From Candidatus Omnitrophota bacterium (lineage in GTDB: Bacteria; Omnitrophota; Gorgyraeia; 2-01-FULL-45-10): a stretch of DNA of 64,000 nucleotides. The number at the start of each line of letters is the position of its first letter. Positions within the stretch are counted from its first letter, which is position 1. The stretch spans positions 6,447-70,446 of the forward strand of contig JBAZUO010000002.1 in NCBI GenBank assembly GCA_041661345.1. The letters are read 5' to 3'. The notes under the pieces are model-generated. The model was not told the DNA's origin and did no database searches. It was given only the letters and a program-made list of their open reading frames with translations. Positions 3,338 to 50,254 of the stretch are shown one piece after another. A program made the position numbers and the translations under genes.

Positions 3338-4146
3338 CAAATAAAAAGATCGGGATAATCGGCGGCGGGAACATGGGCGAGGCTATATTCAGCCGCCTGT
3401 CGAATGTCATCGAAAAATCTACATCGCTTATGCTTAGCGAACTCGATGTCGCGAGGCGTGATTATCTGCAGAAGAAATATAAGATCATAGTAGAGATCGA
3501 CAATAATGTCGTAGTCAAATACTCGGATGTTATAATACTTGCCGTTAAACCGAAAGATTTCGATAAGATATTGAAACAGGAAGTGTGCTGCGGCGTATCA
3601 AAAAATAAATTGCTGATATCGATAGCCGCCGGCATCACGACCGGGTATATAGAGAATATTGTGGGCAAAGATATCCCTGTGATAAGGGTGATGCCGAATA
3701 TGCCGGCACTCATAGGCGAGGGTATGTCGAGCATTAGCGCCGGCCGTTCGGCGAGTTCCGGGGATATGGAAACCGCGAAGGAGATATTTTCTTCTATCGG
3801 TGAAGTGATCGAGGTGGAGGAGAAACTGGTCGATGCCGTAACCGCCGTTAGCGGAAGCGGGCCCGCCTATTTTTTCTACCTGGTCGAGGCGCTCGTGGAT
3901 GCGGGCGTCAAACTTGGCTTAAATCTTGAAACGTCGAAAAAGCTCGTATTGCAGACAGCGTTGGGCAGTATGAAATTATTGGAGGCACTTAAAGAGGAAC
4001 CCGAGACGCTGCGGAAGAGGGTAACGTCGAAAGGCGGGACGACCGAGGCCGCTTTGAAGGTATTCGAAAAGAAGATATTAAAGAACGTGATCAATGACGC
4101 CGTCAGGGCGGCGCATAAACGTTCAAAAGAACTTACGGGGGGATAA
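3334..4146 (+). CDS. proC: pyrroline-5-carboxylate reductase
   Basis: KIGIIGGGNMGEAI Rossmann motif, VMPNMPALIGEG, TSKGGTTEAAL. ATG 3334 forms an ATGA overlap with the yggS stop; the track start 3322 is also possible. Confidence 0.9.
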   Translation: MTNKKIGIIGGGNMGEAIFSRLSNVIEKSTSLMLSELDVARRDYLQKKYKIIVEIDNNVVVKYSDVIILAVKPKDFDKILKQEVCCGVSKNKLLISIAAGITTGYIENIVGKDIPVIRVMPNMPALIGEGMSSISAGRSASSGDMETAKEIFSSIGEVIEVEEKLVDAVTAVSGSGPAYFFYLVEALVDAGVKLGLNLETSKKLVLQTALGSMKLLEALKEEPETLRKRVTSKGGTTEAALKVFEKKILKNVINDAVRAAHKRSKELTGG

Positions 4147-5329: not shown

Positions 5330-8086
5330 ATGGAATACAAAAACACACTGAATCTTCCGCGAACCGATTTTCCGATGAAGGCGGATCTGCCGAACCGCGA
5401 ACCGAAGATGTTGAAAGAGTGGCAGGATTCCGGCCTTTACACGAAGATCCGCAATGCGCGAAAAGGCAGTAAAAAATTTATTCTGCATGACGGGCCGCCG
5501 TACGCAAATGGTTCCATACACATGGGCCACGCTTTAAACAAGATCCTGAAAGATATCGTCATGCGGTACAAGACGATGCGCCTTCTCGATTCGCCGTATG
5601 TGCCGGGTTGGGATTGCCACGGTTTGCCCGTAGAGCATCAGCTATTCAAAGATCTCAAGATGACGAAATACGACATCGATCAGGTTAAGTTCAGGAAGAA
5701 GGCTTATGACTACGCGATGAAATACGTGGGCATCCAGAGGGATGAGTTTAAACGCCTGGGTATCATGGGTGATTGGGATAATCCGTATCTGACCATCAAG
5801 ACGGCCTATGAGGCCGAGATCATCAGATCGTTCGGAAAACTCGTCGATAAGGGCTACATATATAAGGGCTTAAAACCGGTGAACTGGTGTACTACCTGCG
5901 AAACGGCGCTCGCCGAGGCCGAGGTCGAGTACGAGAATAAAGTATCCCCTTCGATCTATGTGAAATTTGAATCGGTATATGATAACGCGCCGGCGCATTT
6001 TATAATCTGGACCACGACGCCCTGGACGCTGGTGGCAAACGTTGCGATTGCCGTTCATCCGGAATTGGATTACGTCCTGGTGAAAGCCAATGGCGAGCGA
6101 TATATTGTGGCAAAAGCCCGTCTCGAAGCTGTTATGGAAAAATTCGGATTCGAAGTTTATGAGACGGTAAAGACATTTAAAGGGAAAGATCTGAACGGCC
6201 TCGAGGCGAGGCATCCATTTATTGACAGGATTTCCAAAGTGGTGCTTGCCGAATATGTTTCGATGGAAGACGGCACCGGCTGTGTTCACACGGCCCCGGG
6301 GCATGGGCAGGAAGACTATATGACGGGGAAGCGCTGCAAGCTTCCGATACTGATGCCGGTCAATTCAAGAGGCAAGTTCGATGAAACAGCGGGCGAGTTC
6401 GGCGGAATGGATGTTTACAAGGCGAACAGGCCCATAATTGATAAACTCAAACTCCTCGGGAAACTCGTTCGCGAGGAAGAACTGACACATTCGTACCCGC
6501 ATTGCTGGCGCTGTAAAAAGCCCATAATATTCCGCGCGACCGAACAATATTTCATGAAGATCGATCACGACGACTTGAGGCGCAAGATAATGGAGGCGAT
6601 CACCAAAACTATAAAGTGGATACCCGCCGCGGGCCAGGCGCGGATATCGTCGATGGTCGCCAACAGGCCCGACTGGTGCCTTTCGAGGCAGAGGTACTGG
6701 GGGGTTCCCATAATCGCGTTTTATTGCGAGGGCTGTAAAGCGGTGCTTCTTGACGCGAAGGTTATCGAGCACGTCGCCGGCCTCGTAGAGAAAGAAGGCG
6801 CCGACATATGGTTCTCGAAGAAAGAAGAGGAGCTTCTTCCGCACGGGACGGAGTGCAAAGTTTGTAAGGGCCGTAAGTTTAGGAAAGAGACCGATATCAT
6901 CGATGTCTGGTTCGACTCGGGCGTCAGCCATCAGGCGGTACTGAAGAATAATAAATCGCTTGATTATCCCTGCGAGTTGTACCTGGAAGGCTCCGACCAG
7001 CACAGGGGGTGGTTCCAGTCGGCGCTCATCACGGCGATGGGGATCGATAACATCTCTCCGTATAAGAATGTGCTGACCCATGGATTCGTTGTAGATGGCG
7101 AAGGGAAGAAGATGTCGAAGTCGCTTGGCAATGTGCTAACGCCGGCTCAGGTCATGAAGAAATACGGCGCGGACATTTTAAGGCTATGGGTCGCGTCCAG
7201 CGACTACTCCGAGGACGTAAGGTTATCCGACGAGATCCTGACGAGGCTTGCCGACGCTTACAGGAAGATACGCAATACCTATAAATATCTTTTAAGCAAT
7301 CTGTATGATTACGATCCCGCGAAAAATTCCGTACCTCACGACCGGATGCTCGAAATAGACAGATGGGTCCTGTCGAAACTGTCCGGGCTTATAAGGCAGG
7401 TGGAGGGGCATTACGATTCATACGAATTCCACAAGATTTACAGGGATGTCTACAATTTCTGTGTCTACGAAATTTCGTCGGTTTACCTGGACATTTTGAA
7501 GGATAGAATGTATACTTTTAAATCCGATTCGCTCGAGCGAAGAAGCGGCCAGACGGCGATGTTCGAGATATTGACAAGCCTGCTTAAGATAATGGCGCCG
7601 ATACTAGCCATGACTACGGATGAGGCCTGGGCCTGCCTTAAATATGAAGGAAAGGGCGATTCGGTGCACCTTGAAGAATGGCCGAATGCAAATTACGAAA
7701 AGCTTTTCGACGAATCTTTGAATGAAAAATGGAGCCGCCTCATCGCAGTCAGAGAAGCGGTATTGAAAAAGTTGGAGGAAAAGAGAGGCTTGGGCGTCAT
7801 AGGTTCGAGCCTTGAAGCCAGGGTAACGCTTTCAACCGATTCCGCGGATTACAAAAAACTTTTAAGTGACAATAAAGATCTTTTAAGGTATATCTTCATA
7901 GTGTCTCAGGTCGAGCTTAATGATTCTCCCGTCAAGGGAGGCGAGGCCCTCGGCGGCATTCCTATCGCTGTCTATATAGAGAAGGCGAAGGGCCAGAAGT
8001 GCCAGAGATGCTGGAACTACAGCGAGTTGGTCGGCGCTAATAAAGATCATCCGGCCATATGTGAAAGATGTATTAAATCAATATAG
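5330..8086 (+). CDS. ileS: isoleucine--tRNA ligase
   Basis: 918 aa with HIGH-type motif PYANGSIHMGHALN, KMSKS, and C-terminal Cys pairs CQRCWNY...CERC. Confidence 0.97.
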   Translation: MEYKNTLNLPRTDFPMKADLPNREPKMLKEWQDSGLYTKIRNARKGSKKFILHDGPPYANGSIHMGHALNKILKDIVMRYKTMRLLDSPYVPGWDCHGLPVEHQLFKDLKMTKYDIDQVKFRKKAYDYAMKYVGIQRDEFKRLGIMGDWDNPYLTIKTAYEAEIIRSFGKLVDKGYIYKGLKPVNWCTTCETALAEAEVEYENKVSPSIYVKFESVYDNAPAHFIIWTTTPWTLVANVAIAVHPELDYVLVKANGERYIVAKARLEAVMEKFGFEVYETVKTFKGKDLNGLEARHPFIDRISKVVLAEYVSMEDGTGCVHTAPGHGQEDYMTGKRCKLPILMPVNSRGKFDETAGEFGGMDVYKANRPIIDKLKLLGKLVREEELTHSYPHCWRCKKPIIFRATEQYFMKIDHDDLRRKIMEAITKTIKWIPAAGQARISSMVANRPDWCLSRQRYWGVPIIAFYCEGCKAVLLDAKVIEHVAGLVEKEGADIWFSKKEEELLPHGTECKVCKGRKFRKETDIIDVWFDSGVSHQAVLKNNKSLDYPCELYLEGSDQHRGWFQSALITAMGIDNISPYKNVLTHGFVVDGEGKKMSKSLGNVLTPAQVMKKYGADILRLWVASSDYSEDVRLSDEILTRLADAYRKIRNTYKYLLSNLYDYDPAKNSVPHDRMLEIDRWVLSKLSGLIRQVEGHYDSYEFHKIYRDVYNFCVYEISSVYLDILKDRMYTFKSDSLERRSGQTAMFEILTSLLKIMAPILAMTTDEAWACLKYEGKGDSVHLEEWPNANYEKLFDESLNEKWSRLIAVREAVLKKLEEKRGLGVIGSSLEARVTLSTDSADYKKLLSDNKDLLRYIFIVSQVELNDSPVKGGEALGGIPIAVYIEKAKGQKCQRCWNYSELVGANKDHPAICERCIKSI

Positions 8087-8105
8087 AAAAAGGAGTAACT
8101 TAAAA

Positions 8106-8579
8106 ATGGCGAAAGCGAAAAAGTCGAAATCGGTAAAAAAAGTAAAAAAGGTAAAGAGGCTATCTAGACCTAAAAAGGTCCGCGTATCAAAACCGAAGGT
8201 TAAGGCACTGCCTAAATCAGAGCTTAAGATCTACAAGGCGCTTCTTCTTAAGGAGAGAGAAAAGGTTGGCGGCGGGTTGTCCCACATAACGGAAGCCACT
8301 CTCAATAAGTCTCAGAGAGAAGCATCGGGCGACCTTTCAGGATATTCCTATCACATGGCCGATATGGCCAGCGATGACTACGAGAGGGATTTCTCGCTGG
8401 GCAGGGCAACCGACGAACAGCGCATATTATACTCGATCGATGAAGCGATGAAGCGCGTAGAGGATGGCACTTACGGGGCATGCCTGCAGTGCGGAAAATC
8501 GATCCCGAAAAAGAGGCTGAAAGTGCTGCCGTACACCGAAACGTGTATCGAATGTCAGAAGGCAAAAGAGCATAAATGA
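8106..8579 (+). CDS. DksA/TraR-family C4 zinc-finger protein with a Lys-rich N-terminal extension
   Basis: CLQCGKSIPKKRLKVLPYTETCIECQ. ATG 8106 follows AGGAG at 8091-8095. The track start 8061 would overlap ileS. Confidence 0.85.
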   Translation: MAKAKKSKSVKKVKKVKRLSRPKKVRVSKPKVKALPKSELKIYKALLLKEREKVGGGLSHITEATLNKSQREASGDLSGYSYHMADMASDDYERDFSLGRATDEQRILYSIDEAMKRVEDGTYGACLQCGKSIPKKRLKVLPYTETCIECQKAKEHK

Positions 8580-9714: not shown

Positions 9715-10595
9715 CCGAGGCCGACAGGCATAAGAGGCTTGATAAATTCCTCGTAGAAAATCTTCCTAGAAGCATTTCCCGTACATTCATACAGAAACTT
9801 ATATCGGACCAGGATGTCACTGTAAGCGGTAAGCCCGCAAAGCGGCATCATAACCTTGCTGTCGGCGAAATAGTGGATGTAAAAATTCCGGAATCGAAAC
9901 CGTCGGTGATCGCGGCGGAAAAGATACCGCTTAATATAGTCTACGAGGACAAGGATCTGCTAGTAGTGAATAAACCGATCAACATGGTTGTTCATCCAGC
10001 CCCGGGTAATTACGAAAATACTCTCGTAAATGCGCTACTGGCTCATTGTAAGGATCTATCGGGTATAGGCGGCGTGCTGAAACCCGGTATAGTTCACAGG
10101 CTTGATAAGGATACCTCGGGCTTGCTGGTTGTGGCCAAGAATGATGAAGCCCATAACGCTCTTGCCGTGCAATTTAAAGATAGGACGACAAAAAGAATTT
10201 ATGTCGCCCTTGTAAAAGGTGTGGTTGAGCTCGATAACGGTGTGGTTGATCTTCCGATAGGCAGGTCCCATTACTCCAGGCTGAAGATGGCGGTAGATTT
10301 TGACAGCACTAAAAATGCTGTTACCAAATATAAAGTGGTAAAGCGTTTCAAGGATTTTACACAGCTCGAGGTGACGTTAGGGACCGGCAGGACCCACCAG
10401 ATAAGGGTCCATATGTCCTATGTAGGGCACCCTATATTGGGCGATGCTAAGTATGGTTCGCGGGGAAAGCTTAAAAGGCCGGCGCTTCACGCGATGATGC
10501 TCGGATTTACGCATCCGAGAACAGGCAAGTTTATGGAATTTACAAGCCCTCTTCCCGACGACATGAGGGCCTTGATAGCAGAAGGCCATTTGTGA
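9684..10595 (+). CDS. rluD: RluA-family 23S rRNA pseudouridine synthase (RluD-like)
   Basis: N-terminal S4 domain (RLDKFL), catalytic HRLDKDTSGLLVVAK, and TGRTHQIRVH. Confidence 0.9.
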   Translation: MEKGSFRFEITEADRHKRLDKFLVENLPRSISRTFIQKLISDQDVTVSGKPAKRHHNLAVGEIVDVKIPESKPSVIAAEKIPLNIVYEDKDLLVVNKPINMVVHPAPGNYENTLVNALLAHCKDLSGIGGVLKPGIVHRLDKDTSGLLVVAKNDEAHNALAVQFKDRTTKRIYVALVKGVVELDNGVVDLPIGRSHYSRLKMAVDFDSTKNAVTKYKVVKRFKDFTQLEVTLGTGRTHQIRVHMSYVGHPILGDAKYGSRGKLKRPALHAMMLGFTHPRTGKFMEFTSPLPDDMRALIAEGHL

Positions 10596-10608: not shown

Positions 10609-11892
10609 ATGAAATCATACAAGATCAAACCGATAAAAAAACTGTCAGGCGATATAATCCTACCCGGAGATAAATCCATATCTCACAGGGCCGTTATGAT
10701 CGGGGCCATATCACAGGGTGAGACGAGTGTAAGAAATCTTCTTGACTGCGATGATTGCAATTATACCATTCGCGCCTTTAGGAATATGGGCATCCAAATT
10801 AAAAACCATAAGGATAGAACTATAATATCGGGCAGAGGCTTGAGAGGCCTGGTTAAACCGAAGAGTTCGATCAATGTCGGCAACTCCGGGACGACGATCA
10901 GGCTTTTGGCCGGAATTTTATCGGGACAAAATTTTGAAACGGTTCTCGAGGGCGATACGTCTCTATCCAATCGCCCAATGACAAGGGTAGCGGCGCCTCT
11001 GCAGGCGATGGGCGCCGACATAAAAGTTGCCACGGGAGGTTATCCGCCGCTTAAGATTAAGGGCGGCGAACTGCATGCGATCGATTACAGGATGCCGGTA
11101 CCGAGCGCCCAGGTGAAGAGCGCGATTTTGTTCGCGGGATTGTACGCGAAAGGGACGACGACGGTCGAAGAGGTATTCAAAAGCCGCGATCACACGGAGC
11201 GTATGCTTAAGTTGTTTGGTTCCAACATAAAGGTAGATGGTCTTAAGGTCTCGGTTACAGGCGGCGGGGAGCTGACAGGTAAGTCGCTCGAGATCCCCGG
11301 TGATATATCAAGCGCAGGCTTCTTCATGGTGCTCGCAACTCTCCTCGAATCTTCCGCAATTAAAATAAGCAACGTATGCATCAATCCAACGCGGGCCGGT
11401 ATTCTGAATATTATGGTGAGGATGGGTGCCAAAGTAAAGATCATTAACAAACGCGACGTCTTTGAACCGATAGGGGATATAGAGGTTAATTCGAGCGGCA
11501 CCAAGGGTATGGTGATCGAGGAAAATGACATCCCGGGCATTATAGACGAGCTTCCTATAATATTCGTCCTCGCGGCGCTTTCAAAAGGCAAGACCGTGAT
11601 ACGCGGCGCCGAAGAATTAAGGGTTAAGGAGACGGATCGTATTACATCGATGAAGATGAATCTCGAAAAGATGGGCGCCAGAATCGAAGTCAGAAAGAAC
11701 GAGATCGTCATAGACGGGGTTAGCGCTCTCAAGGCCTCGAAGACTTTGAGAAGCTACGGCGATCACAGGACGTGCATGGCGATGACGATAGCCGCGCTTA
11801 CCGCGGAAGGCGAAAGCGAGATCGACGATATTGAGTGTGTCAATAAATCATTCCCGGAATTCTTCAAATATCTGGAGAGGCTGGGAAGATAA
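10609..11892 (+). CDS. aroA: 3-phosphoshikimate 1-carboxyvinyltransferase
   Basis: LPGDKSISHRAVMIGA, NSGTTIRLLAGIL, LRVKETDRI. Confidence 0.95.
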   Translation: MKSYKIKPIKKLSGDIILPGDKSISHRAVMIGAISQGETSVRNLLDCDDCNYTIRAFRNMGIQIKNHKDRTIISGRGLRGLVKPKSSINVGNSGTTIRLLAGILSGQNFETVLEGDTSLSNRPMTRVAAPLQAMGADIKVATGGYPPLKIKGGELHAIDYRMPVPSAQVKSAILFAGLYAKGTTTVEEVFKSRDHTERMLKLFGSNIKVDGLKVSVTGGGELTGKSLEIPGDISSAGFFMVLATLLESSAIKISNVCINPTRAGILNIMVRMGAKVKIINKRDVFEPIGDIEVNSSGTKGMVIEENDIPGIIDELPIIFVLAALSKGKTVIRGAEELRVKETDRITSMKMNLEKMGARIEVRKNEIVIDGVSALKASKTLRSYGDHRTCMAMTIAALTAEGESEIDDIECVNKSFPEFFKYLERLGR

Positions 11893-11912
11893 ATTTTTCG
11901 ATAAATTTATGT

Positions 11913-21623: not shown

Positions 21624-22688
21624 ATGCCGAATGATATAAACAAGCTGTTGAAATTGATGTTTGATAAGGGCGCTTCAGACCTTCATATAACCGCGGGTTC
21701 GCCGCCCCAACTGAGGATAGACGAGAATCTCGTGCCGGCAGACGATAAGATACTGACCCCAGCCGATTCCGAAGAACTTATTTACAGCCTGATCTCCGCC
21801 GAGCAGAAGGGGAGGTTCGAGCAGGACCTGGAGCTCGATATGGCATTCGGCGTTAAGGGGTTAGGCCGTTTCAGGGTTAATGTTTTTAAACAGAGGGGAT
21901 CTGTCGCGTCCTCTATCCGTCTTATACCCCATGAGATGTGGTCATTCGAACAGTGCGGCTTACCGGCCAATGTCACGCTGGATCTATGCAACAGGCCGAA
22001 GGGGCTTGTTTTACTTACCGGCGCTACGGGAAGCGGTAAATCAACAAGCCTTGCATCTATGATAGACTGGATAAATTCCCACAGGCCGTGTCATATCGTT
22101 ACGATAGAAGATCCGATAGAATTTGTCCATAAGAATAAGAAGGCGATCGTTAATCAGCGTGAGGTTTACAGCGATACGCATTCGTTCGCGGAATCGCTCA
22201 AGCATGTGCTGAGACAGGATCCCGACGTAATACTTGTAGGCGAGATGAGAGACCTGGAGACGATCGAAGCGGCCCTGATCGTGGCAGAGACGGGCCACCT
22301 GGTATTTGCGACACTTCATACGTCAGACTGCGTCCAGACCATCAATAGGATCGTGGACGTTTTTCCGGCATCCCAGCAGCAGCAGATAAGAACACAGCTG
22401 TCTTTTGTGCTTATAGGTATTATGTCCCAGCAATTGATACCGAAGTTAAAGGGCCCCGGCCGCGCACTTGCCGTGGAGGTTTTAATCGCTACGCCTGCCG
22501 TAAGATCCCTGATCAGAGAATCCAAGGCGCATCAAATATATTCGGTTATGCAGACATGTCAAAAGGACGGGATGAACACGATGAACCAGGCTCTGTATGA
22601 CCTCTATCAGAAGAAACTCATATCGTATGAAGAGGCTTTTGACAGGACGACCGATCAGGAAGATTTGAAGAGAATATTTAAAAAGTAA
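21624..22688 (+). CDS. pilT: type IV pilus retraction ATPase PilT
   Basis: 354 aa with Walker A GATGSGKST, DPDVILVGEMRD, and a PilT-type AVRSLIRESK motif. Confidence 0.92.
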   Translation: MPNDINKLLKLMFDKGASDLHITAGSPPQLRIDENLVPADDKILTPADSEELIYSLISAEQKGRFEQDLELDMAFGVKGLGRFRVNVFKQRGSVASSIRLIPHEMWSFEQCGLPANVTLDLCNRPKGLVLLTGATGSGKSTSLASMIDWINSHRPCHIVTIEDPIEFVHKNKKAIVNQREVYSDTHSFAESLKHVLRQDPDVILVGEMRDLETIEAALIVAETGHLVFATLHTSDCVQTINRIVDVFPASQQQQIRTQLSFVLIGIMSQQLIPKLKGPGRALAVEVLIATPAVRSLIRESKAHQIYSVMQTCQKDGMNTMNQALYDLYQKKLISYEEAFDRTTDQEDLKRIFKK

Positions 22689-22696
22689 GGGTTCAT

Positions 22697-23143
22697 ATGC
22701 CGCCGATCAAAAGGATAGTGACAAAACAACTGGGTGAGCTCCTGGTGGAGAGGGGTATAATTAATGAATCCCAGCTGGAGAAGGCCCTTAGGATCCAAAA
22801 AGATAAGGGCGGGTTGATAGGGCAGATACTCGTAATGCTTGGTTTTGCCAAGGAAGAGGAGATAGCTCAAGCCCTGACGGTCCAATATGGATTTCCATAC
22901 CTTCCGCTGGAGTGTTATGAGATGAATGCCGATGCCGTGAAGATGATACCGGAAAACGTCTGCGTCCAATACAATCTCATAGCGGTTGATAAGATAGGAG
23001 ACACGCTAACCATAGCGATGTCAAATCCGCTGAACTTCCAGGCCGTAGAGGATATAGAAACGCTCACAAAGTGCAAGGTTCAGGTATTTGTCAGTACCAT
23101 GACGGATATAAATAATTCTATAAAAAAACATAATAAAAAATGA
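22697..23143 (+). CDS. stand-alone T2SSE_N / MshEN-like domain protein
   Basis: 148 aa consisting only of a GspE/PilB N-terminal domain. It has the tandem 24-aa motifs QLGELLVERGIINESQLEKALRIQ, KDKGG, LIGQILVMLGFAKEEEIAQALTVQ. There is no ATPase core. Confidence 0.8.
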   Translation: MPPIKRIVTKQLGELLVERGIINESQLEKALRIQKDKGGLIGQILVMLGFAKEEEIAQALTVQYGFPYLPLECYEMNADAVKMIPENVCVQYNLIAVDKIGDTLTIAMSNPLNFQAVEDIETLTKCKVQVFVSTMTDINNSIKKHNKK

Positions 23144-24876
23144 GCGTTGACTTAAAAGATAAACTCACCAAGATACTCATAGAGCGGAAGCTTCTGCAAT
23201 CCAGCGACCTCGAGAAGGCGCTTTCCGTCCAGAAGCAGAGAGGCGGATCTTTAAGCGATATCCTCGTGGAATTAGGCCTCGTTTCAAAGAACGACCTGAT
23301 GGTAGCTATAAGCCACGGGCTGGGCATTCCGCTGATAAATCTCTCCCGGTATAAGATCGATCCCGATGTGATAAAGCTGATCCCAAGAAAGACGGTAAAA
23401 AATTATAAGATAATGCCGATTGCCAAGATGGGCACTACGCTGACGATAGCGATGGCCGATCCTCTGAATGTGTTCGCCTTGGACGACCTTAAGGTCCTGA
23501 CGGGACTAAAAATAAATCCCGTCATAACGACCGACAAGGAGATCTCCGAAGCCATAGGGCGCTATTATGATCAGGATTCTTACGCTGCTATAGAGAAGAT
23601 AGTGGATGACATGTCCACTATCAGCGACATCAAGCTGATCGAAGATGCCGTTCATGGCGTAGAGCAGAATTCGTCAGATATAATGAAGATGACGCTGGAG
23701 GCGCCAGTCGTAAAGATCACAAATCTTCTGCTGACGGAGGCTGTCAACCTGAGGGCGAGCGACGTATTGATCGAACCTATGGAGGACAAGCTGAGGATCA
23801 GGTATAGGGTCGATGGTATATTACAGGAAGGCAGAAATCCGCCCATAGCACTGCATAGCGCTATAGTTTCCAGGCTGAAGGTCGTGTCGGAACTCGACAT
23901 AGCGGAGCGCCGCCTTCCTCAGGACGGAAGATTTAAGGTCAAGCTTCACGGCCGGGAAGTGGATTTCAGAATCTCGGTGCTGCCGACAAGCATGGGAGAA
24001 AAGGTCGCGCTCCGAATACTCGATAAGTCGCAGGCCACGCTCGATATTGATAAGTTAGGTTTTGACCAACTGTCCATAGACCTGATAAAGAAGGAAGCGT
24101 CGAAACCGCACGGAATGATACTCATTTGCGGGCCGACCGGATGCGGTAAGACGACGACGCTTTACTCTGTGCTGGAATATGTTAACTCCCCGGCAAAGAA
24201 TGTGATCACCGTAGAGGATCCGGTTGAATATCAGATCGAAGGCATAAATCAGGTTACGGCCAGGCCCGAGATCGGGCTCAGTTTCGCGAACGCCCTTAGG
24301 TCCATATTGAGACAAGACCCGAACATAATAATGATAGGCGAGATAAGAGATTTTGAAACCGTTGATATCGCGATAAAGGCGGCCCTTACCGGCCACCTCG
24401 TCTTGAGCACACTTCATACCACAACGGCAACCGGATCGATAATCCGATTAGTGAACATGGGGGTGGAACCGTTTCTCATCACATCATCCTTGATTCTCGT
24501 CGGTGCACAAAGGCTCGTGCGTAAGATCTGTCAGCAGTGCAAAGAACCATATGAACTGAGTAAAGACGCTATAGACAAACTCAAGATAAAACCGGATAAG
24601 GGCAAGGTAATTTTCTACCGGGGCAAGGGATGCAGTGCCTGCGGCAATACGGGATATAAAGGCCGCATCGGTTTGTTGGAGGTATTGGTGTTAAGCCCAA
24701 AGATAAAAGCTCTTGTATTGGAAAACGCGCAGGAGTATGTCATAAGAGATCTGGCAAGGAGCGAGGGCATGAAGACACTCAGGGAAAACGGTATACAGAA
24801 CGTTCTGAACGGATTGACAACGATAGACGAAGTCCTTCGCGTTACCGTAGGGGAACAGGACATAGATACGGTGTGA
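23140..24876 (+). CDS. pilB: type IV pilus assembly ATPase PilB/GspE paralogue 1
   Basis: 578 aa with a T2SSE_N domain, Walker A GPTGCGKTT, DPNIIMIGEIRD, and tetracysteine CQQC...CSAC. ATGA overlap with the upstream gene. Confidence 0.92.
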   Translation: MSVDLKDKLTKILIERKLLQSSDLEKALSVQKQRGGSLSDILVELGLVSKNDLMVAISHGLGIPLINLSRYKIDPDVIKLIPRKTVKNYKIMPIAKMGTTLTIAMADPLNVFALDDLKVLTGLKINPVITTDKEISEAIGRYYDQDSYAAIEKIVDDMSTISDIKLIEDAVHGVEQNSSDIMKMTLEAPVVKITNLLLTEAVNLRASDVLIEPMEDKLRIRYRVDGILQEGRNPPIALHSAIVSRLKVVSELDIAERRLPQDGRFKVKLHGREVDFRISVLPTSMGEKVALRILDKSQATLDIDKLGFDQLSIDLIKKEASKPHGMILICGPTGCGKTTTLYSVLEYVNSPAKNVITVEDPVEYQIEGINQVTARPEIGLSFANALRSILRQDPNIIMIGEIRDFETVDIAIKAALTGHLVLSTLHTTTATGSIIRLVNMGVEPFLITSSLILVGAQRLVRKICQQCKEPYELSKDAIDKLKIKPDKGKVIFYRGKGCSACGNTGYKGRIGLLEVLVLSPKIKALVLENAQEYVIRDLARSEGMKTLRENGIQNVLNGLTTIDEVLRVTVGEQDIDTV

Positions 24877-24877
24877 T

Positions 24878-26599
24878 ATGGCTGAATCATTAAAAGAAAA
24901 ACTGATAGATATACTGATAAAGGGAAACCTTGTAAAGCAGAAGGATCTTGACAAGGCCCTCGAAGTTCAGAAGAAATCCGGCGGGAATCTCGGCAAGATA
25001 CTCGTATCAAAGGGGTATATTTCGGAAAAGGACCTTATGGTGTCGATATCGAGGCAGCTCAGTATACCGCCTATAGACTTATCCAAATATAAGATAACGC
25101 CGATGGTCATCCAGCTTATTCCCGAAAAGACCGCCAAAAAGTATTCGCTGATTCCGGTCTCCAAACTTGGTATGACGCTTACAGTGGCAATGGCCGATCC
25201 GTTGAACGTCCTGGCAATGGATGAGGTCAAGATACTTACCAATTACAAAATAGATCCGGTCATTGCCACGGAGAACGACATCAAGGAAGCGATAGCCAGC
25301 TATTACGGTACACATACCCAGGAGATATCGAAGCTTCTGGAAGAGATGCCGCAGGAGGACGTGGAGGTTACCGAGGAAGAAGAAGAGAAAATCGATGTAA
25401 GCGAGGTGGCTGAGGAGAGCCAGAAGGCACCCATAGTTAAGGTGGTGGGGCTTATACTTAATGAAGCGATGAAGCGCCGCGCCAGCGACATACACATAGA
25501 GCCATCCGAGAAATTTTTACGGGTCAGGTACAGAGTAGACGGTACCCTGCATGAGGCACTGACGCTTCCCAAGAAGAACCAGAACGCGGTTATAGCCAGG
25601 GTGAAGATCATGTCGAAGCTGGACATAACAGAAACGAGAATACCGCAGGACGGGCGCTTCAAAATAAGCTTCGAAGGAAAGGAAATAGATTTCAGAGTCT
25701 CTGTGCTTCCGATACAATTCGGCGGCAAGATAGTATTAAGAGCCCTCGATAAATCCAGCTTAAGTCTAGGACTTGAGAAGCTGGGATTTTTGCCCAAGCC
25801 TTTGGCTACTTTTCAAACAGCGCTTAAGAGGCCTTATGGAATGATATTGGTAACCGGTCCGACGGGAAGCGGAAAGTCAACAACTCTATATTCTATTATC
25901 AATCAACTTAATACGCTGGAGCGGAACATCGTGACGCTGGAGGATCCGGTTGAGTATGAACTTGGCGGGATCACACAGATCCAGGCCAAGCCGGAGATAG
26001 GGCTTACGTTTTCTAATGGGCTTAAGTCGGTCTTGAGACAGAGCCCGGATATAGTGATGGTCGGTGAGATTAGAGACTCCGAGACCGCCGACATAGCGAT
26101 AAAGGCGTCTCTTACCGGACAATTGATATTGAGTACGCTGCATACCAATGACGCCGCCGGCGCGATAACGAGGCTTATAGATATGGGGGTGGAACCTTTT
26201 TTGGTATCCACAAGCCTCGTCCTATCTTCAGCGCAAAGACTGATGAGGAAGATCTGCATGAATTGCAGAGAGGCTATCGAAATACCTAAAAGCGTTCTGG
26301 AGAGGATCGGATTAAAACCCGATGAACTTTCAAAAAAGGGCATAAAAAGTTTTTACAAAGGTAGAGGATGCACGAAATGCAATAATACCGGGTACTACGG
26401 CAGGATAGGCATTCTCGAAACACTGCTTCTTGATGATAAGGTCAGGGATATGGTAATGAAAAGAGTTTCCAGCGACGATATAAAAAATTATGCCATAAAA
26501 GAACTCGGCATGTTGACATTGAGGGATAACGCGCTGGAGAATTTTGTTAATGGCATAACGACTCTCGAGGAAGTCATGAGAGTAACTTCGGAGGACTAA
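24878..26599 (+). CDS. pilB: type IV pilus assembly ATPase PilB/GspE paralogue 2
   Basis: 573 aa with a T2SSE_N domain, Walker A GPTGSGKST, SPDIVMVGEIRD, and tetracysteine CMNC...CTKC. Confidence 0.92.
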   Translation: MAESLKEKLIDILIKGNLVKQKDLDKALEVQKKSGGNLGKILVSKGYISEKDLMVSISRQLSIPPIDLSKYKITPMVIQLIPEKTAKKYSLIPVSKLGMTLTVAMADPLNVLAMDEVKILTNYKIDPVIATENDIKEAIASYYGTHTQEISKLLEEMPQEDVEVTEEEEEKIDVSEVAEESQKAPIVKVVGLILNEAMKRRASDIHIEPSEKFLRVRYRVDGTLHEALTLPKKNQNAVIARVKIMSKLDITETRIPQDGRFKISFEGKEIDFRVSVLPIQFGGKIVLRALDKSSLSLGLEKLGFLPKPLATFQTALKRPYGMILVTGPTGSGKSTTLYSIINQLNTLERNIVTLEDPVEYELGGITQIQAKPEIGLTFSNGLKSVLRQSPDIVMVGEIRDSETADIAIKASLTGQLILSTLHTNDAAGAITRLIDMGVEPFLVSTSLVLSSAQRLMRKICMNCREAIEIPKSVLERIGLKPDELSKKGIKSFYKGRGCTKCNNTGYYGRIGILETLLLDDKVRDMVMKRVSSDDIKNYAIKELGMLTLRDNALENFVNGITTLEEVMRVTSED

Positions 26600-36188: not shown

Positions 36189-36510
36189 CCTGATCGCGCA
36201 TGTTTTTAATAGTAAGCTTAAAATAATTTTTCAAAAAAGCGGCTTGTTGCGTTTCATATCGCACTTGGACCTGGTTCGGCTGTTTCAGAGAGCGTCCAGA
36301 CGTTCCGGCCTGCCTGTGACAATGACGAAAGGTTTTAGCCCGCGTCTTAAAATAAGTATATCCAGAGCGCTGAAACTTGGAGTGGAGAGCGATCACGAGG
36401 AAGCGATATTTAGCATGGATGAGCCTGTCAAACCTCATGATTTTATAAAGGCTATAAACGAAAAATTACCGGTTGGCGTTCTGGTAACCAGCGCAGAAGG
36501 GATGAATTGA
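36157..36510 (+). CDS. TIGR03936/DUF2344-like radical-SAM-associated protein, about half the usual length
   Basis: LRFISHLDLVRLFQRASRRSGLPVTMTKGFSPRLKISISRALKLGVES. The 5' end overlaps pilQ by 32 nt, and the stop overlaps the rng start. Confidence 0.7.
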   Translation: MSKRKLKRGNSLIAHVFNSKLKIIFQKSGLLRFISHLDLVRLFQRASRRSGLPVTMTKGFSPRLKISISRALKLGVESDHEEAIFSMDEPVKPHDFIKAINEKLPVGVLVTSAEGMN

Positions 36511-38027
36511 TGCAGAGAGAGATATTTATCAATGTTACGCAGCATGAAAAACGCGTAGCTGTACTTGAAAATAAGCGCCTCGAAGAGTTTTATATCGAAC
36601 GGCCGGATAGCGTAAGGAGTTTTGTCGGCAATATCTATAAGGGGCGGGTCGATTCGGTATTGCCCGGTATGGGCGCCGCGTTTGTCAATATGGGACTGGA
36701 AAAGAACGGTTTTCTCTATGTTACCGATGTTGTGGCAGGCGCTTCGGATTACGACAAGTTGTTCGAGGAAAGTGCGGCTGAGGAAGAGGCCGCACCAAGC
36801 GAGAAACATAAGGCCTTCCCGCCGATAAATGAGTTATTGAAAAAAGGCGATGAAGTGCTTGTCCAGGTTGTCAAGGAGCCTATAGGCACAAAGGGCCCGA
36901 GGCTGACTACCCATATAAGTATACCTGGAAGGTTTCTGGTTCTCATGCCATTCGATAATCACATAGGGCTTTCAAAGAGGATAGAGTCGAGGGAGGAACG
37001 GGACAGGATACGTAAAATAATCGAGGAGTTGAGGCTGCCAAAAGAGATAGGTTTTATAGTGAGGACCGCCGCTATAGGAGCAACCCTGAAAGATTTTCAG
37101 AGGGAATCGAGGTATCTCCTGAATCTGTGGCAGCATATAAAAGGAAGGGCGCGCCGTGTAAAGCCCCCATATCTGGTTCACCAGGAGTACGATATCATAC
37201 TCAGGGTGGCAAGAGATATGTTCACCAATGACGTGGCGAGGCTTGATGTCGATTCAAGGAACGAGTTCAGGAGGATATCGCATTTTTTAAGGATACTGGC
37301 CCCGCATTTGAGAGCCAGGCTAAAATTGCATAATGACAGGATTTCGCTTTTTGAAAAGTACGGCATCGAAACGCAGATCGAGAAGATATACAACAGGATA
37401 GTTCAACTCAAGAGCGGAGGATATCTTATATTCGACCAGACCGAGTCGCTCGTCGCAATAGACGTCAATTCAGGCAAGTTCGTCGGAAAGCGCAATCTGG
37501 AAGACACCGTATACAAAACCAACATTGAAGCCGCGGAAGAGGTGCCCAGGCAGCTTAAGCTCCGTGATCTCGGCGGGATAATAATCATAGACTTCATTGA
37601 TATGGAGTATGCCGAACACAGGAGGGGCGTATTTAAAACCCTGGAGAGAAATCTCGAAGACGATAAGGCCAAGACCAAGATACTTAATATATCTAGCATC
37701 GGCCTTGTGGAGATGACCCGCCAAAGGGTGCGTTCGAGCATCGAATCCAAGAGTTATCAGAAGTGCCCGTATTGCGACGGCCGCGGTATAGTTAAAGCGA
37801 TACAGACGATTTCGATAGAGCTTATCAGGAAGCTGGAGCGCTTGCTGCAGGATACGAAATCGAGGGAAGTATTTGTCTCTCTTCATCCGGACGTCGCATG
37901 TTATATCTTGAGCCCTGAAAGAAATATGGTTCGGCCGTTGGAAAAGCGTTTCAGGAAAGCCATAAGGGTCATAGAGGACCCCAATCTTCACATAGAAGAT
38001 ATAAAGATAGACCAGAAAAATCCCTAG
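36510..38027 (+). CDS. rng: Rne/Rng-family ribonuclease (RNase G-like)
   Basis: S1 domain VGNIYKGRVDSVLPGMGAAFVNMG, DVNSGKF, IIIIDFIDM, and a CPYCDGRG zinc link. I prefer ATG 36510 (TGATG overlap) over the track TTG at 36507. Confidence 0.92.
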   Translation: MQREIFINVTQHEKRVAVLENKRLEEFYIERPDSVRSFVGNIYKGRVDSVLPGMGAAFVNMGLEKNGFLYVTDVVAGASDYDKLFEESAAEEEAAPSEKHKAFPPINELLKKGDEVLVQVVKEPIGTKGPRLTTHISIPGRFLVLMPFDNHIGLSKRIESREERDRIRKIIEELRLPKEIGFIVRTAAIGATLKDFQRESRYLLNLWQHIKGRARRVKPPYLVHQEYDIILRVARDMFTNDVARLDVDSRNEFRRISHFLRILAPHLRARLKLHNDRISLFEKYGIETQIEKIYNRIVQLKSGGYLIFDQTESLVAIDVNSGKFVGKRNLEDTVYKTNIEAAEEVPRQLKLRDLGGIIIIDFIDMEYAEHRRGVFKTLERNLEDDKAKTKILNISSIGLVEMTRQRVRSSIESKSYQKCPYCDGRGIVKAIQTISIELIRKLERLLQDTKSREVFVSLHPDVACYILSPERNMVRPLEKRFRKAIRVIEDPNLHIEDIKIDQKNP

Positions 38028-46802: not shown

Positions 46803-48695
46803 ATGTTTGAATCTATAAAGATCTACCTTAAAGAAGAGATCGATTTAGAAGAGATATCCCTTAAACTGGTGGAGTACGGCTACCGTGCCTCCAAAAAAGT
46901 TTCCGAGGAAGGTGATTTCTCACGCCTCGGAGACACACTTACAATATATCCCGCGACATTTGAATATCCCCTGAGAATCGGTTTTTTGCATGATAAAGTC
47001 GAACGCATAACGAGCGTAGACCCAATCACCTATGAGAATGTTGAAAACCACGATGTCGCTATAATACTCCCGATAAAAGGTATTGCCAGAAAGAGGATCC
47101 GCCGCAAAGAGCTGGACACTGCCGAACAATCTCCGATCGATAACTTCGTTGACATAGAAGCCGGCGACTACATTGTCCACATAGAACATGGTATAGGTAA
47201 ATATCTCGGCGTAGAGAAGGTTAAGATAGACAAGAAGTATGTTGAGCATCTGGCGATAGAGTACGCATCCGGCAGCAGGCTCTATGTGCCGTTTACCGAT
47301 CTGGATAAGATACACAAATATTTCGGATTTGAGAAGAGACTTCCGAAGCTCCATAAGCTGGGTGCCAAATTGTGGAAAGCCCAGAAGGAGAGGGCGAAGG
47401 AAGGTGTATATAAAATAGCGGCTGAGCTTCTCGAACTGCAGGCAAAACGTTCATCGGCCCCCGGATTCAGATTCTCAACCGATACCGAGTGGCAGGCGAA
47501 GCTCGAGAAAGAATTCCCTTACAAAGACACGCCCGATCAGATGCGCTCGGCGATAGAGGTGAAGAAAGACATGGAGTCTTCCAAACCGATGGACAGGCTT
47601 CTCTGCGGAGATGTCGGTTATGGAAAGACGGAGGTTGCGATAAGGGCCGCCTTTAAGGCGGTGATGGACAATAAGCAGGTAGCGATCCTTGTACCTACCA
47701 CTATCCTCGCCGAACAGCATTTTAATACATTTACTAACCGCATGAAGAACCTGCCTGTGGTTGTAGAGATGCTATCGAGGTTCAGATCTAAGGATGAGCA
47801 GAATAGAATAGTGAAGGGTGTAGCCAGCGGCACCGTTGATATAATCATAGGCACACATCGTCTTCTTTCACAGGATATAAGATTTAAAGACCTGGGGCTT
47901 GTGATCATAGATGAAGAGCAGCGCTTCGGAGTAAAACACAAGGAGCATCTAAAAAAGATGCGGTTATCTGTCGATGTCCTGACGCTGACTGCCACACCCA
48001 TTCCGCGTACACTATACCTTGCGCTGATGGGCGGCAGGGACATATCGGTTATCAATACGCCGCCGTCCGAGAGGCTGCCTGTAGAGACGAAAGTTACACA
48101 CTATGACGACGCGCTTGTGCGGGATGCGATCATGAAAGAGAAACGTCGCGGAGGCCAAGTATTTTTTGTCCACAACAGAATAAAGGGGATAGAGAAACTC
48201 GCCAGGGACCTTGCCGCCCTTGTGCCCGGAATAAGCATTGCCGTCGGCCACGGGAGGATGAACGAGAGACAGCTCGAGGACTCCATGATCAAATTTATAG
48301 ACGGCAAGATCGACTGCCTTGTTTCGACGACGATCATAGAGAGCGGCATAGATATTCCAAACGCGAATACGATAATCATAAACAGGGCTGATACGTTTGG
48401 GCTATCGGAGCTTTATCAATTGCGCGGCAGGGTGGGCAGGTTCACGAGGGCGGCGTATGCGTACCTGCTTATTCCGAAGCATTTTGTCTTAAGCTCCGAA
48501 TCCCAGAAGAGATTGACTGCAATAAAGAAGTTTCAGGAACTCGGCAGCGGGTTCAAGCTTGCAATGGAAGATCTTCAGATCAGGGGCGCGGGCAACCTTC
48601 TCGGCGTCGAACAGCACGGCTATATCAACGCGGTCGGCTTCGACCTATACTGCCGCCTCCTCAAATCCGCGATCGATTCCTATAAGAAAAAATAA
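46803..48695 (+). CDS. mfd: minimal Mfd-like transcription-repair coupling factor (630 aa)
   Basis: UvrB/Mfd domain-2-like GDFSRLGDTLTIYP...PLRIGFLHDKVERITSVDP, CarD/RID GDYIVHIEHGIGKY, and SF2 motifs GDVGYGKTE, DEEQRFG, QLRGRVGR. TRG-like LQIRGAGNLLGVEQHG. It ends ~25 aa later. Confidence 0.8.
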   Translation: MFESIKIYLKEEIDLEEISLKLVEYGYRASKKVSEEGDFSRLGDTLTIYPATFEYPLRIGFLHDKVERITSVDPITYENVENHDVAIILPIKGIARKRIRRKELDTAEQSPIDNFVDIEAGDYIVHIEHGIGKYLGVEKVKIDKKYVEHLAIEYASGSRLYVPFTDLDKIHKYFGFEKRLPKLHKLGAKLWKAQKERAKEGVYKIAAELLELQAKRSSAPGFRFSTDTEWQAKLEKEFPYKDTPDQMRSAIEVKKDMESSKPMDRLLCGDVGYGKTEVAIRAAFKAVMDNKQVAILVPTTILAEQHFNTFTNRMKNLPVVVEMLSRFRSKDEQNRIVKGVASGTVDIIIGTHRLLSQDIRFKDLGLVIIDEEQRFGVKHKEHLKKMRLSVDVLTLTATPIPRTLYLALMGGRDISVINTPPSERLPVETKVTHYDDALVRDAIMKEKRRGGQVFFVHNRIKGIEKLARDLAALVPGISIAVGHGRMNERQLEDSMIKFIDGKIDCLVSTTIIESGIDIPNANTIIINRADTFGLSELYQLRGRVGRFTRAAYAYLLIPKHFVLSSESQKRLTAIKKFQELGSGFKLAMEDLQIRGAGNLLGVEQHGYINAVGFDLYCRLLKSAIDSYKKK

Positions 48696-48776
48696 AATTT
48701 CATGGCTCCTAAAAATGTGCTGTGTCGAGTGGCTCACAGGGACGCTCGGCCGCTCCAGCGGCGGCCTCGCTCCAGG

Positions 48777-48830
48777 TAAATTTTTGTGCCGCCGCTATTT
48801 AACAATAGCGGACCAATCCACAAAAATTTA
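48777..48830 (+). repeat. two-tier perfect hairpin H1
   Basis: Outer 12 bp TAAATTTTTGTG (48777-88) / CACAAAAATTTA (48819-30). Inner 8 bp CCGCTATT (48792-99) / AATAGCGG (48804-11). Loop TAAC. Confidence 0.9.
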
Positions 48831-49010
48831 CAGGCCCTGTTCACCACATTGCCACATCACATTCTGTAATCCGTAAAATTTTCCGACTCTCCTCAGGATT
48901 TTTTTTGCTTCTTAGTATCGGCGGAACTTTTGTATGCCTTATTATTCTTATACAGCCGCCCGGGGCAGTGGGGTTGAGCCGTGAAATTTTACGGGTGACC
49001 CTACTGAACG

Positions 49011-49086
49011 TAGAGACGCTTTCCGTGACCATCGGGAAACTGCCCCATTTATGACACTTTCCCGATTACCTCCGAAAGCGTCTCTA
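49011..49086 (+). repeat. two-tier perfect hairpin H3
   Basis: Outer 13 bp TAGAGACGCTTTC (49011-23) / GAAAGCGTCTCTA (49074-86). Inner 9 bp ATCGGGAAA (49031-39) / TTTCCCGAT (49058-66). 7x7 internal loop and 18-nt apical loop. Confidence 0.9.
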
Positions 49087-49126
49087 TCCCCCGATGTTCT
49101 CCCTAAGAAATTTTTCGATTCCTAAA

Positions 49127-49233
49127 GAGTCCCCCAAAGCGTTCGCGCCCAACCATATCTTCAAGATGTGATGTGGTGAACCACTCGACACATCACATCT
49201 TACGAATGGCTTGGGCGTGGAAGATGGGGGCTC
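49127..49233 (+). repeat. 107-nt extended imperfect hairpin H4
   Basis: Apical 13 bp perfect stem 49163-75 / 49189-201 around the loop GTGAACCACTCGA. Lower helices are 49151-56/49206-12, 49142-50/49213-21 (two G-U pairs on the + strand) and 49127-35/49226-33. Confidence 0.8.
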
Positions 49234-49261
49234 GAAGACAAAAAATTTCCCCATAATCCGT

Positions 49262-49291
49262 TTGACGTTATATTAGTATATATGTTACAAT
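49262..49291 (+). promoter_or_regulatory. sigma70-type promoter (extended -10) of the DHS-like/LPS gene block
   Basis: TTGACG (49262-49267), 18-nt spacer ending in TGt, TACAAT (49286-49291). Confidence 0.55.
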
Positions 49292-49315
49292 ACACACTTC
49301 GAAAGGGCGAAATAG

Positions 49316-50254
49316 ATGAATAGATGCAGGGCTGACCTGACCAAGATCAGGACGATACCGCTTAATGCGCGTAAGTGCAAAGTGGCCATAAAAGACTTTG
49401 CCAAGCTTACAAAAAAGGGCTCCAGTTTCAAGAGTTTCTACGAATCACTTCCCGATATACTCGCAAGCCAGAATTTTCGTGTTCTTGTCGATAGAATAGC
49501 CGAATCCTACAGAAAAGATAAGATGGTTATATTGATGATGGGTGCACATGTCATAAAATGCGGCCTATCGCCGCTTATCATAGATCTCATGAAACGCGGG
49601 GTGGTTAAGGCGGTCGCGTTAAACGGCGCGGGCGTTATTCACGATACAGAGATAGCGATGATCGGCAGGACGAGCGAAGACGTCGGTGAAGGAATACTCG
49701 ACGGGTCGTTCGGTATGGCGAAGGAGACGGCGAGCTTCATAAACGGCGCGATAAACGCCGGATTCGGCGATGGTATAGGGATAGGCGAGGCGGTCGGTTC
49801 GGCCATTGTAAATAATAAGCTGCTCCATAAAAATTTAAGCATACTTGCCAACGGATACGAATTGAACGTCCCCGTAACGGCGCACGTCGCGATAGGCACG
49901 GATATAATTCACCAGCACCCGTCGGCAAACGGTGAGGCGATCGGAGAAGGTTCGCTTCTGGATTTCAGGAATTTCATATACAGTATTTCGCGGCTCGCGG
50001 GAGGCGTGGCAATCAATCTAGGCTCCGCAGTGATCCTTCCCGAAGTATTTTTGAAGGCGGTTACTGTCGCCAGAAACCTCGGTAATAAGTTGGACGTATT
50101 TACTACCGCGAATTTTGACATGATAAGCCAGTACAGGCCGTATCAGAATATACTATCGCGGCCGACATCCAAGGGTGGCAAAGGCTACAATATCACCGGG
50201 CATCATGAGATAATGATACCGCTTCTTTACCGTTCCATTATCGAGAAGATCTAA
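49316..50254 (+). CDS. uncharacterised protein with a deoxyhypusine-synthase-like (DHS-like) pattern
   Basis: VILMMGAHVIKCGLSPLIIDLMKRGVVKAVALNGAGVIHDTE parallels the DHS segment GYTSNLISSGIRE...VDVLVTTAGGVEEDL as I recall it. NVPVTAHVAIGTDIIH and GVAINLGSAVILPE also parallel it. The assignment is by eye only. Confidence 0.35.
   Translation: MNRCRADLTKIRTIPLNARKCKVAIKDFAKLTKKGSSFKSFYESLPDILASQNFRVLVDRIAESYRKDKMVILMMGAHVIKCGLSPLIIDLMKRGVVKAVALNGAGVIHDTEIAMIGRTSEDVGEGILDGSFGMAKETASFINGAINAGFGDGIGIGEAVGSAIVNNKLLHKNLSILANGYELNVPVTAHVAIGTDIIHQHPSANGEAIGEGSLLDFRNFIYSISRLAGGVAINLGSAVILPEVFLKAVTVARNLGNKLDVFTTANFDMISQYRPYQNILSRPTSKGGKGYNITGHHEIMIPLLYRSIIEKI

Follow-up and report, generated by a model that had tools for sequence, protein, structure and literature searches.

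Correia elements of Neisseria and the ERIC (enterobacterial repetitive intergenic consensus) or IRU (intergenic repeat unit) sequences of enterobacteria are non-coding units of about 100-200 nt. They have terminal inverted repeats, form a long imperfect hairpin, are often co-transcribed with their neighbors and are often flanked by TA. Here we describe units of a comparable kind in a genome of Candidatus Omnitrophota. They form an island at positions 48696-49261 of a 64,000-nt stretch (hereafter the window), in the gap that follows an mfd-like gene. The island units share with Correia and ERIC the lack of coding sequence, the terminal inverted repeats, the imperfect hairpin, the intergenic dispersal and the frequent TA flanks. 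However, no sequence similarity was found between them, and the termini of the island units are boxes of A residues followed by T residues (AnTn boxes). Moreover, the island unit is Y-shaped, with two inner hairpins that vary by subfamily, and the units are piled into mosaics of 500-600 nt.

The units (about 100-190 nt, thus below the limit of approximately 400 bp) carry no transposase gene and have terminal inverted repeats, as in the definition of MITEs, the miniature inverted-repeat transposable elements (PMC3184786). Repetitive extragenic palindromic (REP) sequences are G+C-rich palindromes of 20-40 nt with a tag at one end, unpaired and reading GTAG or CGTC, and a link to RAYT (Y1) transposases (PMC3733652). 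In E. coli, REP units are grouped into bacterial interspersed mosaic elements (BIMEs), mosaic clusters which are intergenic and mostly lie downstream of open reading frames (ORFs; PMC3184786, PMC3733652). The island resembles a BIME in that both are mosaics of palindromic units in either orientation with short conserved linkers, both are intergenic and mostly just after stop codons, and compensatory changes keep the stems in both. The island units differ in their size of about 100-190 nt, in being bounded by AT boxes and in the lack of a consistent tag, and no RAYT is known for them. Since the REP size was not found, and the GTAG/CGTC tag not consistently, we did not file the island as REP/BIME, although it shows intergenic clustering in opposite orientations and as a cluster behaves as a BIME does. 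In Streptococcus pneumoniae, BOX elements consist of boxA, a variable number of boxB, and boxC, are transcribed with their neighbors and are thought to be non-autonomous mobile elements (PMC3184786). Both they and the island are modular repeats forming stable structures. The BOX order is fixed as A-Bn-C, whereas the island modules are nested, shuffled and present in both orientations, with no sequence relation to BOX.

In our view the island is very probably a mosaic cluster of at least four non-coding, non-autonomous palindromic repeat units that belong to dispersed families within one clade of Omnitrophota. Comparison of the sequences established that the first unit is a member of a family named M1, that this family is dispersed, that modules are joined at boxes, and that the island is absent from the closest relative.

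The M1 family and its copy next to mfd

The first matches to the arms of unit 1 (el1) of the island were found after mfd in contig L004 and, in L003, 3.8 kb downstream of mfd after an rsmA-like gene. Further copies were sought by a metagenome scan with the 16-nt core pattern GTGTCGAGTGGYTCRC. The scan gave at least 120 loci, most of them fortuitous matches to unrelated coding sequence, and the true family members among the matches listed were only those of L083, L137, L157, L177, and L195 (two copies in the last). In a second search, the translated unit was compared with a protein database to catch spurious gene calls over M1, which yielded four "proteins" without a Pfam domain (P0001-P0004) and three more contigs with DNA (L202, L203, and L204). 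These public gene calls of 65-98 aa, on ENA contigs, run antisense to M1 (MWRCGEQG…SLRTTRHSTF) and are spurious ORFs made by the repeat. M1 was thus represented by 12 copies with DNA on 11 contigs from about 10 datasets, and P0002 marks a thirteenth place beyond these. There was no match in the phage, plasmid, and viral collections. Furthermore, M1 carries no coding signal: its reading frames are interrupted in several copies, and neither the island ORFs nor P0001-P0004 matched Pfam. The copies lie after mfd (window and L004), after the rsmA-like gene (L003), after other ORFs (L195, L157, L083, L137, and L203) and at divergent gene starts (L202 and L204).

The M1 unit is about 177 nt long and is delimited by terminal inverted repeats, starting with TAAAATTTTTCG and ending with CGAAAAATTTTA. 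These termini were present in L157, L004, L202, and L204, and variants of them in L195, L003, and the window. The fold is Y-shaped: the imperfect main stem has a bulge and conserved mismatches, inner hairpin a has the loop CCATG, and inner hairpin b is box-flanked. The seven full copies showed a mean column identity of 81%. A covariance model (R1) was built from these seven copies, all of other contigs and none from the window, and RNAalifold gave a consensus fold for seven full copies. R1 matched the window at 48691-48884 over model positions 1-177 of 177, scoring 84.3 bits (E = 2e-21) on the + strand, compared to 47.9 bits for the - strand, and it recovered all other M1 copies. It also matched, with 62-70 bits, four units of M7, a sister subfamily with the same inner hairpins and different outer arms. 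The CCATG loop of hairpin a was conserved across M1 and M7, and in L003 one M7 unit follows mfd directly. As for the copy number that the MITE definition refers to, 12 M1 and 4 M7 copies were counted over 11 contigs, with up to three islands in a single 11.7-kb contig and one island in the 64-kb window.

Unit 1 is the full M1 copy of the window (48691-48884, + strand). Its start falls on the mfd stop codon, the TAA (48693-48695) overlapping with box 1, and box 4 forms its end. Its left arm AATGTGCTGTGTCGAGTGGCTCACAGGGAC (48714-48743) pairs imperfectly with the right arm GGCCCTGTTCACCACATTGCCACATCACATT (48833-48863), which was placed by alignment and model, and the left-arm core TGTGTCGAGTGG was invariant in four copies. 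Inner hairpin a (48744-48770) contains GCGGCGGC at 48758-48765 and is a GC-rich replacement for the AT-rich, CCATG-loop hairpin of the other copies. Inner hairpin b (48776-48831) is the hairpin that an initial annotation of the letters alone had called H1, and the covariance model aligned it to the box-flanked hairpin b of M1. The two-tier design of H1, with an inner stem of 8 bp and the loop TAAC, was confirmed, while the outer stem, made of boxes 2 and 3, has 13 perfect pairs (48776-48788 / 48819-48831) and not 12. The octamer GCCGCCGC, which the same annotation had placed at 48888-95, actually lies at 48788-48795.

The 3' end of mfd was then compared among Mfd protein relatives drawn from 185,579 species genomes. 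The spacer behind mfd measured 4, 15, 39, 59, 184, 213, 463, or 620 nt across Omnitrophota, the last being that of the window. In the closest relative, L002, whose Mfd is 83% identical, the same downstream gene stands behind a 184-nt spacer with a different 18-bp hairpin. L002 aligned only with the promoter region at 49261-49306 (85%), and the island was absent. The conservation at mfd 3' ends that served as a test of the RNA reading was not observed, given this absence and the range of 4-620 nt among the Omnitrophota relatives. L016, from another Omnitrophota lineage, has its own unrelated repeat (…CTATTTGTCTCCGCCATCAAATCGCACGAGCGATTTGTGGACGGATCCGTCCTCTG…) at 5917-6153 and 9723-9806, which adjoins both the mfd 3' end and the 3' end of the rsmA-like gene, and in L006 the rsmA-like gene is followed by a GC-rich hairpin island. 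Intergenic repeats that are specific to a lineage seem to be common in Omnitrophota.

Box-bounded modules and mosaic islands

Seven A3-6T3-5 boxes, which had been missed by the initial annotation, start at 48694, 48778, 48822, 48875, 48984, 49108, and 49240. Their density is seven in 555 nt (48694-49248) compared to 43 in the other 63.4 kb, and about 0.4 would be predicted for such a length. No helical phasing of the boxes was found, the spacings of 84, 44, 53, 109, 124, and 132 nt being without a regular phase. The boxes bound the island units, and they likewise bound the modules of islands in L003, L004, L195, L157, and L204.

Segment D lies between boxes 4 and 5 (48883-48983, + strand); it is weakly structured and includes a T8 run (48899-48906). 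The motif GGCGGAACTTTTGT (48920-48933) in this segment is common to the M3/M5 modules, with a 14/14 match at 7981-7994 of L195, and related motifs occur in L157, L004, and L007; the motif weakly suggests that segment D belongs with the M3/M5 family. Together with the adjoining bases, boxes 4 and 5 form an inverted repeat, GTAATCCGTAAAATTTTCCGACTC / GAGCCGTGAAATTTTACGGGTGAC (48866-48999), that encloses segment D. A shorter form of this repeat had been noted before, and it could be extended to 48866-48889 / 48976-48999 (79% complementarity over 24 nt). L005, L195, and L204 also contain the motif CACCCGTAAAA(A)TTT. Unit E (48984-49115, + strand) follows and ends at box 6. Its body is the hairpin H3 (49011-49086), whose 13 perfect pairs (49011-49023 / 49074-49086) sit in 32-nt arms that are 81% complementary, and its left terminus AAATTTTACGGGTGAC is common to modules in L195, L204, and L005.

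Unit F (el5; 49108-49248, - strand) is an M1-related variant in inverted orientation and corresponds to the hairpin H4 of the initial annotation. It has the M1-type terminus AAATTTTTCGATTC and the M1 core (39 nt) at 49163-49201, without the inner hairpins a and b, and carries extra outer stems at 49133-49152 / 49211-49230. The 13 perfect pairs of H4 (49163-49175 / 49189-49201) lie inside 49133-49230. The full M1 model did not detect unit F, so that its M1 membership is drawn from the core and one terminus only. In addition, a long-range inverted repeat of 26 nt (48712-48737 versus 49176-49201, 88% complementary), overlooked before, joins the el1 core with the unit F core, 438 nt apart. Elsewhere in the window, at 11891-11908, TAAATTTTTCGATAAATTT stands directly on the stop codon of an EPSP synthase ORF (10609-11892). 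It consists of an exact M1-type terminus (AAATTTTTCGAT) and then a second box, just 5' of a TTGACA promoter-like hexamer, and by its sequence may represent either a solo terminus from the island's repeat family or the scar left by excision of such a repeat.

The same kind of mosaic was found in other contigs. L195 (Ga0315284_10013187, 11.7 kb) has three hairpin islands of about 480-580 nt each (1-480, 3026-3610, and 7752-8319), which make up about 14% of the contig DNA. These islands share the modules M1, M7, M3/M5, and M6 and the "ACTGG" and "CGGGTGAC" units, and the order and orientation of the modules vary. M1 is joined to at least five different following neighbors, always at a box. L204 reads GAAAATTTTA|TCGGGTGAC, and at the same point L195 has about 98 nt extra and a second box; as judged from the two sequences, a module was gained or lost here at a box. 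Units are clustered in opposite orientations: in the window, el1 lies on the + strand and F has the inverted orientation, and both orientations are present in L195, L204, and L003. M1 lies directly after a co-oriented ORF in 8-9 of the 12 copies, and the islands are placed between a stop codon and the next promoter. Furthermore, assemblies break inside such islands (L001, L004, L083, and the start of L195), which is a usual symptom of repeats. A self-BLAST of the island against the window gave no second copy outside the island.

The predicted folding of the island is exceptionally stable. For the RNA fold of the region, z was -10.6 (+ strand) and -11.9 (- strand), equaled by 0 of 20 shuffles, and for the DNA fold it was -11.6 (0 of 100 shuffles). 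With a folding score from our own script, the island reached z = -8.8, compared to -2.0 to +1.9 in nine further gaps of the window. An inverted-repeat search bore out the unusually long stems described earlier, since H1, H3, and H4 each have 13 perfect pairs. The statement that no stem is followed by a U-tract also held, with no T-run after any + strand stem. The segment 48400-49600 gave no intrinsic terminator on the + strand, taken as a G+C-rich stem with a T run immediately behind it; the T8 run at 48899-48906 lies 17 nt beyond unit 1. In agreement with the absence of a known RNA class in the initial annotation, Rfam gave no match at gathering thresholds in the whole 64 kb, and a permissive Rfam search of the region returned only chance-level matches of the miRNA/lncRNA type (E of about 0.9-9).

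The leading idea of that annotation had been a large structured RNA, that is, a single dedicated non-coding RNA, about 560 nt long and encoded in the gap from mfd to the following operon. The very high predicted stability on both strands and the lack of island ORFs with family support would fit such an RNA, and the island resembles the large RNAs of Rfam (OLE, GOLLD, ROOL, HEARO, RNase P, tmRNA, and 6S) in length and predicted stability. It differs from them in having no covariance-model match, in being multi-copy and modular, in not being syntenic and in its strand-symmetric pairing. Moreover, it is missing from L002 despite the same flanking genes, its parts recur independently beside unrelated genes, in both orientations and in different orders, and neither a preceding promoter-like site nor a following terminator was found on either strand. 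The idea of a single RNA is essentially refuted by these results.

Pairing, orientation, and the nature of the units

The pairing of M1 was evaluated on 11 copies. Standard pairs made up 97% of 437 cells, and 20 of the 46 pairs had changes on both sides. None of 500 shuffles reached any of the five pairing measures, and sliding the partners lowered the pairing to about 40%. These values are to be read with the caveats that the alignment was fitted to the model and that the copies are related. The compensatory changes, together with the shuffle and slide controls, indicated that the hairpins are maintained. The cells that were not Watson-Crick included 5 of 437 with G.U and 2 with A.C. Since G.U is nearly absent, the complementarity is equal on both strands, which fits DNA palindromes better than an RNA-only constraint. 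Where a unit stands directly after a stop codon, it has the same sense in 10 of 10 cases. This orientation may reflect transcription or the replication strand, and the two are inseparable here because the genes are co-oriented.

These observations also bear on the possibility, to which we give clearly less weight, that the units are selected cis-acting elements and not merely selfish DNA. They would then be structured 3'-UTR (untranslated region) or insulator modules in multiple copies, acting in the transcript by 3' exonuclease protection, RNase E processing at AAAUUU boxes or termination independent of a U-tract, or acting in the DNA through bent AnTn boxes and protein binding sites. This reading overlaps with that of a mobile repeat mosaic, because many known repeats are both. 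It is favored by the covariation that keeps the Y-shaped fold, by the apical CCATG loop kept in M1 and M7, by the sense orientation next to stop codons, by the location of islands between a stop codon and the following promoter, and by the presence of an RNase E/G gene in the window (36507-38027). On the other hand, close relatives lack any such element at the mfd junction (spacers of 4-59 nt), units are also found inverted and beside divergent gene starts, near-absence of G.U is unusual for helices selected as RNA, and the orientation bias is confounded with the replication strand, all window genes being co-oriented.

The flanks of the units were compared for signs of insertion. TA..TA was present in four complete copies, where it extends the palindrome, TG..TG (a non-palindromic direct pair) was present in one, and two copies were discordant. 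Since TA..TA is itself palindromic, the TA flanks may belong to the inverted repeat. The initial annotation had also considered a non-autonomous element (MITE or palindrome-associated transposable element, PATE), and from a mobile repeat it had expected dozens of near-identical copies with target-site duplications. The dispersed family of about 177 nt with terminal inverted repeats and the contig breaks agree with the first idea; the second was not literally borne out, as the copies are about 81% identical and target duplications are indistinguishable from the inverted termini.

About 3 of 11 M1 copies (L195b, L177, and L004) had GTAG on the 5' side of the stem, and the others had ATAG, CTAG, GTAA, or none. 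The tag is of interest because the units might be substrates of a single-strand DNA transposase (HUH/Y1, of the RAYT or IS200/IS605 type), which would make them REP/REPIN- or PATE-like and not double-strand MITEs. The imperfect hairpins with conserved mismatches and a main-stem bulge, and the compensatory changes that keep these hairpins, are consistent with this explanation, and the orientation bias could reflect the replication strand. However, the low frequency of GTAG, a unit of about 177 nt with AT-rich termini in place of a 20-40-nt G+C-rich palindrome (PMC3733652), the absence of a Y1 transposase match among the annotated ORFs of the 64-kb window, and termini in the form of classical terminal inverted repeats make it decidedly improbable.

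A further reading is somewhat less remote, though still unlikely. The strong covariation, the conserved CCATG loop, the sense orientation in all ten cases and the joins that always fall at boxes would also be explained if M1 and M7 were a structure-selected, orientation-specific family or were acted on by an undescribed recombination system that is box-specific or uses single strands. In the former case they could act as RNA modules in many copies, setting the 3' ends of mRNAs and insulating operons in a phylum that has few canonical terminators, and in the latter the islands would be cassette-like mosaics assembled at AnTn boxes.

The reading that we prefer remains a mosaic of non-autonomous repeats, for which we propose the following course. 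The units would be mobilized in trans, now or formerly, like MITEs, with insertion in or beside AnTn boxes or at a TA dinucleotide. Islands would expand as units are added beside or inside one another where insertion does no harm, namely from a stop codon to the next promoter, and box-to-box recombination would add and remove modules. As a by-product, transcripts that run on from mfd would carry a row of very stable hairpins at their end. It is plausible that these hairpins block 3' exonucleases and so protect the 3' end, and it is possible that they insulate the downstream 3-deoxy-D-manno-octulosonate (Kdo) operon or give RNase E cuts at the AU boxes.

Several observations weigh against this reading. 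Among the annotated window ORFs, neither a transposase nor an autonomous partner with the same termini was found. The target-site duplication signal is equivocal, with TA..TA extending the palindrome and TG..TG in just one copy. An empty site was sought at the 3' end of the rsmA-like gene, and none was clean, the relatives being too divergent and having other repeats or none. The H3 body of unit E had no detected relative in the compared contigs, and there is just one island within this 64-kb window. At 81% identity the M1 copies are not near-identical, and recent mobility is unproven. Finally, the strong covariation could also mean selection for function, and so could the same-sense rule after stop codons.

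Neighborhood of the island and meaning for Omnitrophota

The window is a housekeeping stretch with all genes on the + strand. The genes 5' of the island encode IleRS, MreBCD, PBP2, RodA, a type IV pilus cluster, RNase E/G, L21, L27, Obg, ProBA, NadD, RsfS, ArgS, and Mfd, and a lipopolysaccharide (LPS)/Kdo operon lies 3' of it. The pilus cluster (21624-26599) has three successive T2SSE-type ATPase genes (21624-22688, 23140-24876, and 24878-26599) and a separate small MshEN-domain ORF (22697-23143). The gap at 48696-49315 measures 620 nt, from the stop of the mfd-like ORF at 48695 to the next supported ORF at 49316. The initial annotation had rightly called it the largest non-coding stretch of the window, since the remaining gaps above 300 nt contain small + strand genes (N_methyl pilins, L21, L27, a MazE-like protein, an MshEN protein, and DUF5679). 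A tRNA/tmRNA scan gave no hits. GC skew is negative across 48696-49300 (down to -0.31) and positive in the flanking + strand genes.

The mfd-like ORF (46803-48695, + strand) has the domains UvrB_inter, CarD_TRCF_RID, DEAD, and Helicase_C. The encoded Mfd is a short form of 630 aa, without a match to the C-terminal TRCF domain and with most of the usual N-terminal module missing. Its length and stop position are common to all Omnitrophota relatives, whereas the Chloroflexota matches span about 2.4-2.6 kb. The short protein and the ORF at 48559-48876, which leaves the mfd 3' end in a different frame, might point to a decayed coding remnant in the spacer, such as the missing Mfd C-terminal domain or a dead gene. 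However, all Omnitrophota relatives match residues 1-630 with the same stop, whatever follows, and the shared stop position excludes a decayed Mfd C-terminus. A domain search gave the island ORFs no family, as had been stated at the outset, and the sequence is accounted for by palindromic units found elsewhere. A coding remnant was therefore ruled out as the origin of the spacer.

The right limit of the island is marked by a sigma-70-like promoter of the downstream operon (49262-49291, + strand; TTGACG, an 18-nt spacer, and TACAAT, with TG), which is itself outside the repeat island. Genes for PfkB, KdsB, and KdsA are part of the operon starting there. The gene that comes first behind the island (49316-50254, 312 aa) had a sub-threshold Pfam match to deoxyhypusine synthase (E = 0.0011). 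It heads the PfkB-kinase/KdsB/KdsA/KpsF/KdsC/LpxL/LptCAB operon and is 86% identical in L002.

As a kind of genomic repeat, the island is already familiar (MITE, BIME, or BOX-like), and for the M1 family itself we found no description; a full-text search of a literature library gave no account of such repeats in Omnitrophota. At present the family is an incremental addition to the catalog of bacterial intergenic repeats. In annotation, such islands should be masked as repeats and taken neither for genes, as in the four public M1 "proteins", nor for novel large RNAs. In assembly, they are break points in Omnitrophota metagenome-assembled genomes. The modular grammar of the units, which are box-bounded, nested, and Y-shaped, is unusually clear. 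If a mobilizing enzyme or a role at the RNA level were found, the family would become a tractable model for the growth of mosaics. These results indicate that dense mosaics of palindromic repeats are tolerated, or put to use, in an uncultivated phylum whose genomes are small and tightly packed.

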